A program made the position numbers and the translations under genes. Positions 54,214 through 54,896 of a stretch of DNA of 64,000 nt are shown piece after piece (positions within the stretch are counted from its first letter, which is position 1; each line of letters starts with the position of its first letter). The stretch is taken from NCBI GenBank assembly GCA_963747695.1, contig CAVVFV010000008.1, forward strand, positions 11,592 to 75,591, read 5' to 3'. Source of the DNA: Candidatus Falkowbacteria bacterium. Lineage in GTDB: Bacteria > Patescibacteriota > Patescibacteriia > Patescibacteriales > WJLG01. A model generated the notes under the pieces. The model was not told the DNA's origin. It saw nothing but the letters and a program-made list of their open reading frames with translations, and did not search any database.

Positions 54214-54241
54214 TTGACAACACTGGAAGAAGTGATAAAAT
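54214..54241 (+). promoter_or_regulatory. groESL promoter (TTGACA-16 nt-TGaTAAAAT)
   Basis: -35 TTGACA at 54214-54219, TG at 54233-54234 and -10 TAAAAT at 54236-54241. Confidence 0.65.
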
Positions 54242-54252
54242 AAGGTATGCTT

Positions 54253-54279
54253 TTAGCACTTCAAGCGTTGGAGTGCTAA
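54253..54279 (+). promoter_or_regulatory. CIRCE operator (HrcA binding site)
   Basis: TTAGCACTT-N9-GAGTGCTAA against the consensus TTAGCACTC-N9-GAGTGCTAA. Confidence 0.9.
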
Positions 54280-54293
54280 CCAATTATTTAATA

Positions 54294-54477
54294 TGATGCT
54301 AATCCGCAAATGAGCGCGAATGCCGCGAAAACCGCGAATAACACACCCCGTCAAGCCGAGGCGGCTTGCCACCCCTCTCCCACGCATCGCTTCGCTTTGC
54401 GGGGCAAGCGAGAAGGGAATTATTTAATTATTCGCATTTTTCGCGGCATTCGCGACTTTTTCGCAGCATTCGCATCA
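54294..54477. repeat. Nested palindromic element in the groES 5' leader (CGAATGC arms, GC core, extra insert)
   Basis: Arms TGATGCTAATCCGCAAATGAGCGCGAATGCCGCGAAAACCGCGAATAA and TTATTCGCATTTTTCGCGGCATTCGCGACTTTTTCGCAGCATTCGCATCA. Core is CAAGCCG-AGG-CGGCTTG (54352-54368) plus CCCCTCTC-[30 nt]-GAGAAGGG (54372-54417). Confidence 0.85.
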
Positions 54478-54485
54478 GAATTTTT

Positions 54486-54773
54486 ATGACAATTAAACCT
54501 CTTCACGACAATGTGGTCATTAAACCGGTGGTCGCGGAAAAGACCACCAAAGCCGGAATCGTTTTACCGGACACGGTCGATAAAGGCAAACCCGAGCAGG
54601 GCACGGTAATGGCGGTCGGTACGGGAAAAATTTTGGACAACGGCCAGCTGGCCAGGATGTCGGTCAAGGTCGGGGATAAAGTGATGTTCAAAAAATACGC
54701 CGCGGACGAGATCGAAATCGGCGGCGAGAAAATGATTTTAATTTCCGAGTCGGATATTTTAGCAATATTATAA
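54486..54773 (+). CDS. groES: Co-chaperonin GroES
   Basis: I prefer the ATG at 54486 (MTIKPLHDNVVIKPV...). The track's extension reads through the repeat. Confidence 0.92.
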   Translation: MTIKPLHDNVVIKPVVAEKTTKAGIVLPDTVDKGKPEQGTVMAVGTGKILDNGQLARMSVKVGDKVMFKKYAADEIEIGGEKMILISESDILAIL

Positions 54774-54888
54774 AATTTTTAAATTTTTGCAATTTTTAAA
54801 TTTTTAAAATAATTTTTAAGACCTAATTTTTGAAAATTAAAAATTAGGGTTTATTTAAAAATTAGAAAAATTAAAAATTATAAAATTA
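54774..54888. repeat. Palindromic element, AATTTTTA-word family, in the groES-groEL spacer
   Basis: AAATTTTTAAATTTTTGCAATTTTTAAATTTTT... pairs with ...AAATTAGAAAAATTAAAAATTATAAAATT. The central stem is ACCTAATTTTT/AAAAATTAGGG. Confidence 0.8.
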
Positions 54889-54896
54889 TAATCGCT

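Follow-up and report, generated by a model that had tools for sequence, protein, structure and literature searches.

Palindromic repeat elements in the leader and the groES-groEL spacer of a CIRCE-controlled groESL operon from a Candidatus Falkowbacteria genome

That operons can contain small palindromic repeats is well established for proteobacteria, Neisseria, and pneumococci, and the tiny genomes of Patescibacteria are usually regarded as streamlined. The repetitive extragenic palindromic (REP) sequences, bacterial interspersed mosaic elements (BIMEs), and REP doublets forming hairpins (REPINs) of Enterobacteria and Pseudomonas are mobilised by REP-associated tyrosine transposases (RAYTs). 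Such elements often lie between the genes of one operon, are transcribed with them, and can stabilise or attenuate the mRNA (PMC3337134, PMC3116915, PMC3049150). Bacterial MITEs (miniature inverted-repeat transposable elements), which include Correia/NEMIS in Neisseria, ERIC/IRU in enterics, RUP/BOX/SPRITE in Streptococcus pneumoniae, and RPE in Rickettsia, are also co-transcribed with neighboring genes and can attenuate transcription, stabilise mRNA, or trigger cleavage by RNase III or RNase E (PMC2229807, PMC3049150, PMC2649163, PMC3337134, PMC3116915). The closest precedent is a BOX element of S. pneumoniae between two T-box leaders of the trp operon, which is co-transcribed while regulation is kept (PMC3049150). 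Here we describe the groESL operon on a 64,000-nt stretch of contig CAVVFV010000008.1 from an uncultivated Candidatus Falkowbacteria bacterium (the window, to whose positions all unlabelled coordinates refer). The operon consists of a strong sigma-70-type promoter, the controlling inverted repeat of chaperone expression (CIRCE), a 185-nt nested palindrome (element 1), groES, a 115-nt AT-only palindrome (element 2), groEL, and a canonical terminator. The intergenic space of this Candidate Phyla Radiation (CPR) genome has most likely been colonised by several small, non-coding, self-complementary MITE- or REPIN-like repeat families, and the two elements in groESL look like tolerated mobile DNA of a known kind rather than a dedicated regulatory device. 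No report of palindromic repeat families in Patescibacteria, or of repeats inside a CIRCE-groESL operon, was found in a literature search of incomplete coverage.

The elements share several features with REP/BIME/REPIN sequences, being many-copy, short extragenic palindromes with two inverted arms in one hairpin of ~100 nt and no clear target-site duplication. On the other hand, the sequences are unrelated, the arms consist of 9-10-nt sub-repeats, and no RAYT (Y1 transposase) gene was found in the 64-kb window. Moreover, REPINs are described as long-lived and vertically inherited, whereas several unrelated families coexist here and replace each other at the same site. With MITEs the elements share a size below 200 bp, the absence of coding capacity, terminal inverted repeats, long and stable stem-loops, and intergenic dispersal. 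As dispersed, non-coding palindromes of less than ~300 bp with terminal inverted repeats (~109-120 nt for the canonical family-A copy, 185 nt for element 1), they have the size, ends, and dispersal that are usual for MITEs. Unlike MITEs, they show neither TA nor any other clear target-site duplication, and no cognate insertion sequence (IS) with matching ends was found among the window proteins or on 22 metagenome contigs carrying family A. An integration host factor site or outward promoter, as known from MITEs, has been demonstrated in none of the elements.

Apart from the two elements, the operon resembles CIRCE/HrcA-controlled groESL operons of the Bacillus type, in which a sigma-70-type promoter is directly followed by TTAGCACTC-N9-GAGTGCTAA, groES, groEL, and a terminator. 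The promoter (54214-54241, + strand, as are the operator, both genes, the terminator, and the nested module described below) consists of TTGACA (54214-54219), a 16-nt spacer with a TG extension (54233-54234), and TAAAAT (54236-54241), and matches 11 of the 12 consensus positions. CIRCE, the HrcA-type inverted repeat TTAGCACTT-CAAGCGTTG-GAGTGCTAA with its N9 loop (54253-54279), starts 12 nt past the -10 box, at approximately +4 to +6 of the transcript, and has 17 of the 18 consensus bases when scored against the 9-bp inverted repeat TTAGCACTC-N9-GAGTGCTAA. The operator is found at the same position in L002-L017 and in every close relative, and TCTTGACA...TG(A/C)TAAAAT is kept in 10 relatives at an unchanged distance from CIRCE. 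An HrcA domain was not detected among the ~60 window proteins in Pfam scans. The gene groES encodes 95 aa (54486-54773, ATG at 54486, stop codon at 54771-54773) and is not preceded by a Shine-Dalgarno (SD) motif, and groEL encodes 548 aa (54897-56543, ATG at 54897), with homologues of up to 95% identity. Both were identified as open reading frames (ORFs). Downstream of groEL (56548-56623), four tandem 8-nt ATTTTCAA units (56548-56589) precede a canonical intrinsic terminator (56591-56623), with which the operon ends. L001, a Logan contig assembled independently, shows 100% identity to the window over 54384-56578 and carries the genes for Cpn10 (PF00166) and Cpn60 (PF00118; Cpn60_TCP1) in tandem; thus, the region is not an assembly artefact. 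The ends of L001 fall inside repeats, as expected of a short-read assembly. Based on GroEL, the window belongs to Patescibacteria, near Falkowbacteria and Buchananbacteria. An earlier note, made from the sequence alone, had listed the features from the promoter to the groEL ATG, and all of them are present at the same coordinates or 1-3 nt away (e.g., element 1 starts at 54293 instead of 54294).

The distances between these features set the locus apart from the CIRCE-groESL norm. From the end of CIRCE to the groES start there are 206 nt, more than in any of 61 other sampled loci with a CIRCE (median 70, maximum 189), and from the groES stop to the groEL start there are 123 nt, which is within the top ~8% of 78 loci (median 37.5; six loci with at least 100 nt). 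In the sister genome and nearest outgroup, L002 (81% GroEL identity), the leader is 17 nt and the spacer 26 nt, and L005, L006, and L008 have leaders of 26-28 nt and spacers of 4-22 nt. With both elements excised, the window would retain a 21-nt leader and a 9-nt spacer, and both elements are therefore insertions relative to the ancestral state, as had been proposed. In the closer relatives described below, no long spacers devoid of palindromic character were found. The accompanying remark on the usual proximity of CIRCE to the start codon calls for a qualification, as the functional neighbor that CIRCE keeps is the promoter, and the insertion is located 3' of the intact promoter-operator unit.

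Element 1 (54293-54477) is a family-A palindromic repeat, here given without strand, as are its arms and element 2. Its predicted fold (-81.5 kcal/mol, z = -6.2) was not equalled by any of 200 dinucleotide shuffles, the number used for each element. The left arm (54293-54341; ATGATGCTAATCC GCAAATGAG CGCGAATGC CGCGAAAAC CGCGAATAA) is composed of CGCGAAT-type units of ~9-10 nt, and a solo arm at 13230-13285 is near-identical to it. The right arm (54428-54477) ends with GCATTCGCATCA, 8 nt before the groES ATG, and the segments 54315-54341 and 54428-54454 of the two arms are 93% complementary. The description of this palindrome as nested was borne out, since the family-A hairpin carries in its loop a GC-rich module of two hairpins and a short AT linker (54342-54427: CACACCCCGTC, hairpin 1 at 54352-54368, CACCCCTC, hairpin 2 at 54372-54417, GGGGAAT), and a further inner hairpin (54388-54410) is located inside hairpin 2. 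Alignment with the orthologous elements of L083 and L088 reveals the module as an extra 87 nt situated precisely at the apex of the hairpin. The complete leader is predicted to fold with one hairpin for CIRCE and another for element 1, leaving the groES AUG in the unpaired AAUUUUUAUG; an RNA thermometer, which was considered as a candidate, is unsupported as the AUG is unpaired.

The GC-rich module constitutes a dispersed, terminator-like element family of its own, judging from its copies elsewhere. Five copies occur in the window (32979-33025, 36591-36628, 48821-48862, 53192-53229, and 54346-54418), and others in relatives and on metagenome contigs, namely L082 (178-215), L084 (12540-12611), L086 (210-251), L092, L094, L103, L105, and L107. 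The variant with the inner hairpin recurs at an unrelated locus in L084, and hairpin 1 shows covariation from copy to copy. Where the module stands alone, a T-tract follows and the copy resembles an intrinsic terminator, whereas the copies nested in family A lack a clean U-tract (AAUUAUUUAAUU at the groES leader). SPRITE elements resemble terminators as well. The module has no match in Rfam. With the covariance models of Rfam 15, the entire window was free of hits at gathering thresholds, and a search of 54150-54950 at E ≤ 5 gave nothing relevant.

Element 2 (54774-54887) is an AT-only palindrome of ~115 nt built from AATTTTTA units (family C), with a fold of -24.1 kcal/mol (z = -3.7, 0 of 200 shuffles as good). 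It begins at the first base past the groES stop and ends 9 nt before the groEL ATG. Its inverted-repeat arms extend over 54765-54891 and overlap the last groES codons, which the outer arms pair with the sequence just 5' of the groEL AUG; the pairs are AU-only and weak. In the model, this pairing is compatible with translational coupling.

Both palindromes belong to dispersed families, and in this the earlier interpretation is supported. CGCGAAT-type arms occur at no fewer than 11 intergenic sites in the window, with 27 motif matches against 7 expected, and the family-C AATTTTTA motif has 17 matches against 3.1 expected. A second family-C copy at 37.8 kb (37810-37900) likewise starts at a stop codon and stops ~10 nt short of the following ATG. 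The canonical family-A copy has the ends ATGATGCGAATACTACGAAT...ATTCGTAGTATTCGCATYAT, with the terminal motifs ATGATGCGAATAC...GTATTCGCATYAT, and arms of ~9-10-nt units. An exact 20-nt family-A terminal repeat was found on the 22 metagenome contigs, as elements of ~109 nt located 1-30 nt from the flanking ORFs and usually between co-directional genes, and had no matches among viral contigs. An alignment of 13 family-A copies revealed conservation of the arms and most of the loop at unrelated loci, with compensatory changes in 3 of 33 pairs. This conservation is at the sequence level, as for recently dispersed copies, and therefore says little about structure. Further palindrome families with units of 7-9 nt (CCAATAT, CTTAGG, and AGAGAGAAG) are present, and a self-BLAST of the window identified 28 repeated segments, nearly all of them intergenic. 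Pure tandem arrays of 8-9-nt units without inverted arms were also observed, such as the four ATTTTCAA units before the groEL terminator and the AACTTTATA and TAACCACT arrays in the groES-groEL spacers of the distant relatives L014 and L015. These arrays suggest that slippage of short units may generate raw material for palindrome arms.

The two positions were compared among 10 close relatives (GroEL identity 87-95%, groEL nucleotide identity ~77-86%), all of which have the gene order MurA, TatD, 0-5 extra genes, groES, and groEL and keep the promoter and CIRCE. Across the relatives, about five unrelated hairpin families occupy the leader and six the spacer. The window combines family A plus module in the leader with family C in the spacer. 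Orthologous family-A copies with the same flanks (TTATTTAAT, then ATGATGC...GCATCAG) are present in the leaders of L083 and L088, together with a spacer of the AAATTACAAAT family (F) in L083 and of the TGTATAAT family in L088. L082 has another family-A subtype at a different point of the leader and, in the spacer, family F. The leader consists only of a small GC hairpin (71-72 nt) in L084, which shares with L085 the family-C spacer orthologous to element 2, and in L091, which has a GTCATCCCCGCG-family spacer. The ATCTTCAAT family occupies the leaders of L086 and L090, with spacers of the AATCCTAA and TGTATAAT families, respectively, and a GTAGATT(T/C)GG family occupies those of L087, with family A in the spacer, and L089, with the GTCATCCCCGCG family. 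The spacer states largely track the GroEL tree while the leader states do not, which suggests recombination or repeated insertion in the leader. Elements 1 and 2 are thus, on comparative grounds, lineage-specific insertions in two high-turnover slots. More distant Patescibacteria (e.g., L003, L010, L011, and L013) have the same habit, yet with other unit sequences.

The small GC-hairpin leader (CGGCCGAATTGAAG...TTCAGG.CGGCCG; L084 9518-9589, L091 9547-9617) is common to a basal and an inner member of the clade and may be the ancestral leader, later replaced by other palindromes. Beyond CIRCE, the L084 and L091 leaders could not be aligned to the window, and hence they provide no empty site for family A. 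The whole region between TatD and groES (54155-54485 in the window) is a variable island, with no extra genes in the window, L089, and L091 and one to five unannotated genes in the others, including an N6/N4 DNA methyltransferase gene in L086.

The proposal that groESL is a special locus, where the palindromes would be dedicated RNA devices for processing, stability, or translational coupling, was not supported. The same families are found at many ordinary junctions, and about two thirds of the window gaps of 50-350 nt are comparably structured: a rough estimate, based on simple ORF calls and 12 mononucleotide shuffles per gap, gave 19 of 29 such gaps folding with z < -3 in the window and 30 of 61 in relatives. 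Throughout the window, palindromic elements commonly end 0-20 nt before start codons. An SD-like motif precedes only 7 of the 62 window genes, and in lacking one groES and groEL are therefore typical of the genome. The sequence 5' of most starts is AT-rich and often comes right behind a palindromic element. Leaderless starts may also occur, as possibly in TatD, whose ATG at 53303 comes 7 nt after the end of TGCTATAAT. Selection on a hairpin in the transcript should bias mismatches toward G:U pairs on the sense strand. There is no such excess in family-A gaps, and the groES leader itself has 9 G:U pairs in the sense fold against 10 in the antisense fold (-112 and -119 kcal/mol, respectively). 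Overall, G:U pairs number 145 on the sense and 101 on the antisense strand, an excess that derives from terminator-bearing gaps and is confounded by G+T skew. Asymmetric family-A copies (ATGATG...CATTAT ends) likewise have no orientation bias relative to the flanking genes (5 versus 4). The absence of G:U or orientation bias in family A and the presence of unrelated palindromes in the same slots of relatives argue against the RNA-device reading.

We consider it probable that both are MITE/REPIN-like, self-folding elements that are passively co-transcribed and tolerated, with the promoter-operator unit and the SD-less starts left intact. Of the two, the family-A element is located 3' of the operator and 5' of the groES start, with the terminator-like GC module as a separate insertion in its loop, and the family-C element fills the groES-groEL spacer. 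Both elements would ride passively on the groESL transcript, from ~54248 to the terminator at 56591-56623. They may be tolerated through folding on themselves and leaving the promoter-CIRCE geometry untouched. In the folded RNA, each hairpin base would join its flanks, so that ~10-25 nt would separate CIRCE from the groES AUG and the groES stop from the groEL AUG, and the AU-rich, SD-less start regions would remain unpaired. Effects on expression, such as protection from exonucleases or RNase III cuts in the ~45-bp stems, would be a by-product and not design. Co-transcription from the CIRCE-controlled promoter is the most economical reading because the cases for an internal promoter and for an attenuator are weak and the only canonical terminator of the operon comes after groEL. 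A good promoter 3' of element 1 was not found.

Several points weigh against passive tolerance of mobile elements. Co-transcription of both elements on a single groESL mRNA, neutrality, and the mobilisation route are what we infer. Mobility is deduced from dispersal alone because neither a transposase, a RAYT, a matching IS, nor a clear target-site duplication was found. The 27-bp stem of element 1 and the tract that follows it could attenuate transcription, and there is a promoter-like site 5' of groEL. Moreover, a hairpin is present in both slots of all 11 clade genomes (in two leaders a small GC hairpin only), amounting to ~11 independent states. Occupancy of the slots exceeds the average persistence of a junction, which could reflect selection for a hairpin as such. 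Alternatively, the slots may be unusually permissive, with new elements preferring existing palindromes, as the nesting in element 1 suggests.

Functional RNA punctuation is an unlikely explanation. It would mean selection for a stable hairpin at each of the two sites, where one palindrome would do as well as another. As an RNase III processing site or a barrier to exonucleases, for example, the hairpin could separate the CIRCE-bearing 5' end from the coding part and allow groES and groEL different half-lives; in an alternative form, it would keep translational coupling through juxtaposed stop and start codons. The hairpins in both slots of the 11 clade genomes despite unrelated sequences, hairpin bases that end 1-17 nt before start codons, the pairing of the last groES codons with the region just 5' of the groEL AUG, and long near-perfect stems that are plausible RNase III substrates all fit this explanation, and Correia and ERIC elements provide precedents (PMC2229807). 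However, the outgroups L002, L005, L006, and L008 manage without any hairpin, many unrelated junctions harbor these families in one orientation or the other, and family-A gaps have no G:U excess on the sense strand. Compensatory changes are few, the arms being conserved in sequence as in recent copies, and nested insertion into existing palindromes would also explain the persistence of the slots. A more pointed version, in which the groESL leader and spacer are under selection for a hairpin as such, so that structure is kept, sequence is replaced, and interchangeable mobile palindromes become mRNA punctuation, is speculative and slightly less likely still. If it were true, the hairpins in this SD-poor CPR clade would mark boundaries for RNase III or exonucleases, or insulate the AU-rich start so that it stays single-stranded, and the genome-wide palindromes of 8-10-nt units would be a domesticated, self-renewing supply of parts and not junk.

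Departures from a single uninterrupted transcript are improbable. An internal promoter in element 2 or its 3' flank, from which groEL would be transcribed free of CIRCE control, could be represented by TAGAAA, an 18-nt spacer, and TATAAT (54863-54892, + strand; 10 of 12 positions), which has an AT-rich, phased-T tract upstream and whose TATAAT is kept in L084. This match is doubtful and likely due to chance because only 4 nt separate the -10 box from the groEL ATG and the context is AT-only, where hexamer matches are expected; with the usual ~7 nt to the transcription start, no 5' untranslated region would be left. Moreover, L084 is so closely related that conservation there is uninformative, nothing equivalent is present where the spacer belongs to another family, and relatives with spacers of 4-26 nt must co-transcribe both genes. 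A transcriptional attenuator in the leader, acting through a strong stem and U-tract or through the nested terminator-like module, is hardly more credible, if anything a shade less so. The element 1 stem (54315-54341 / 54428-54454) is followed by ACUUUUUC (54455-54462) with a U5 tract, a terminator-like site was flagged by the scan at 54441-54455, stand-alone module copies have T-tracts like terminators, and BIMEs can attenuate within operons (PMC3049150). Nevertheless, the U5 tract is absent from the orthologues in L083 (CTAATTCGC) and L088 (CTAATTTGC), the nested module copy has no clean U-tract, and an efficient terminator before an essential chaperonin operon would be unlikely to persist. 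A role at the DNA level seems highly improbable. Here, a nucleoid, repair, or transposition protein would bind to arrays of sites in the arms of 8-10-bp units or, in another form, the arms would extrude as cruciforms and influence the supercoiling of the heat-shock promoter. In many families the arms do consist of short tandem units (with a period of ~10 in family A and ~8.5 in family C), and both strands are equally stable, as fits a duplex-level palindrome. The periods differ between families, though, no candidate protein was identified, and the unit sequences are wholly different between families and genomes, so one protein cannot read all arms.

If MITE/REPIN-like elements are indeed tolerated here, the question of their mobilisation arises. 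Pfam scans of the ~60 window proteins found housekeeping and glycan-synthesis genes only, with no transposase, Y1/RAYT, or Nop/Tas protein. On the 22 contigs, no pair of terminal repeats encloses an ORF. The 15 family-A copies with examined flanks all share self-complementary AT, which is inseparable from an extension of the terminal repeat, and a 3-4-nt direct repeat was not found around them. The lack of a target duplication beyond this ambiguous AT fits REPIN-like, hairpin-based transposition better than DDE-type MITEs, without being proof. An IS110-family transposase (a weak Transposase_20 match) is encoded just 3' of groEL in L088 (6634-7863). Relatives of IS110 target REP-like sequences, and this gene is a possible lead to what mobilises or targets the palindromes.

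Palindromic stem-loops of another kind, the arrays of the tandem interspaced guide RNA (TIGR)-Tas systems, occur in CPR genomes with flexible positions of expression (PMC12045711; bioRxiv 10.64898/2026.09.09.750476). A TIGR array is defined by an adjacent Nop-domain tas gene and by two variable 8-12-nt spacers flanked by box C/D motifs (PMC12045711). TIGR-Tas was rejected as an identity for the elements, as there is no Nop-domain Tas gene in the window, the arms are conserved and are not variable spacer pairs, and the copies are dispersed singly and not arrayed around tas.

In the window, most mid-sized intergenic gaps are filled by palindromes, which nest in one another and are replaced more rapidly than the neighboring promoter and operator. 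If the elements are neutral, groESL shows how self-folding can hide mobile DNA inside an essential transcript. The clade also offers a natural experiment, in which one conserved promoter-CIRCE unit and two genes are combined with about five leader and six spacer inserts, and mRNA processing, stability, and SD-independent translation can serve as the readout. A practical effect is that such repeats break assemblies, as in L001, and create spurious or over-extended ORF calls in metagenome-assembled genomes (MAGs) of the CPR. Examples at this locus are a 59-aa ORF (54310-54489) that ends in an ATGA overlap with groES, and a TTG-extended 135-aa "groES" (54366-54773). The public gene call for groES in L091 (9540-9905) has 121 aa compared with 95 aa, apparently because it reaches into the leader. 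Peptides derived from repeats (e.g., ...IRIFRGIRD...) probably represent artefacts of annotation in CPR MAGs.

Inverted arms were also found around whole genes in the window. A gene of the 23S_rRNA_IVP family (14570-14890) is flanked by the halves of a palindrome with CCAATAT units (family B; 14499-14583 and 14898-14973), so that either the gene lies in a palindrome loop or the halves act as terminal repeats with the gene as their cargo. Another 23S_rRNA_IVP gene is located at 1469-1813. Two nifU-like genes (11442-12138) are bracketed by inverted arms of ~31 nt (11279-11309 and 12190-12220; TTAAGAATTAGGATTTAAGAATTATGAATAT and its complement), which by their arrangement appear to be another long-range split palindrome around genes. 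Downstream of groESL, an ORF of more than 1,900 aa with DUF2341 and fibronectin type III domains (58247-64000) runs off the end of the window; this giant ORF is conserved 3' of groESL in most relatives, where a second giant protein is encoded after it.

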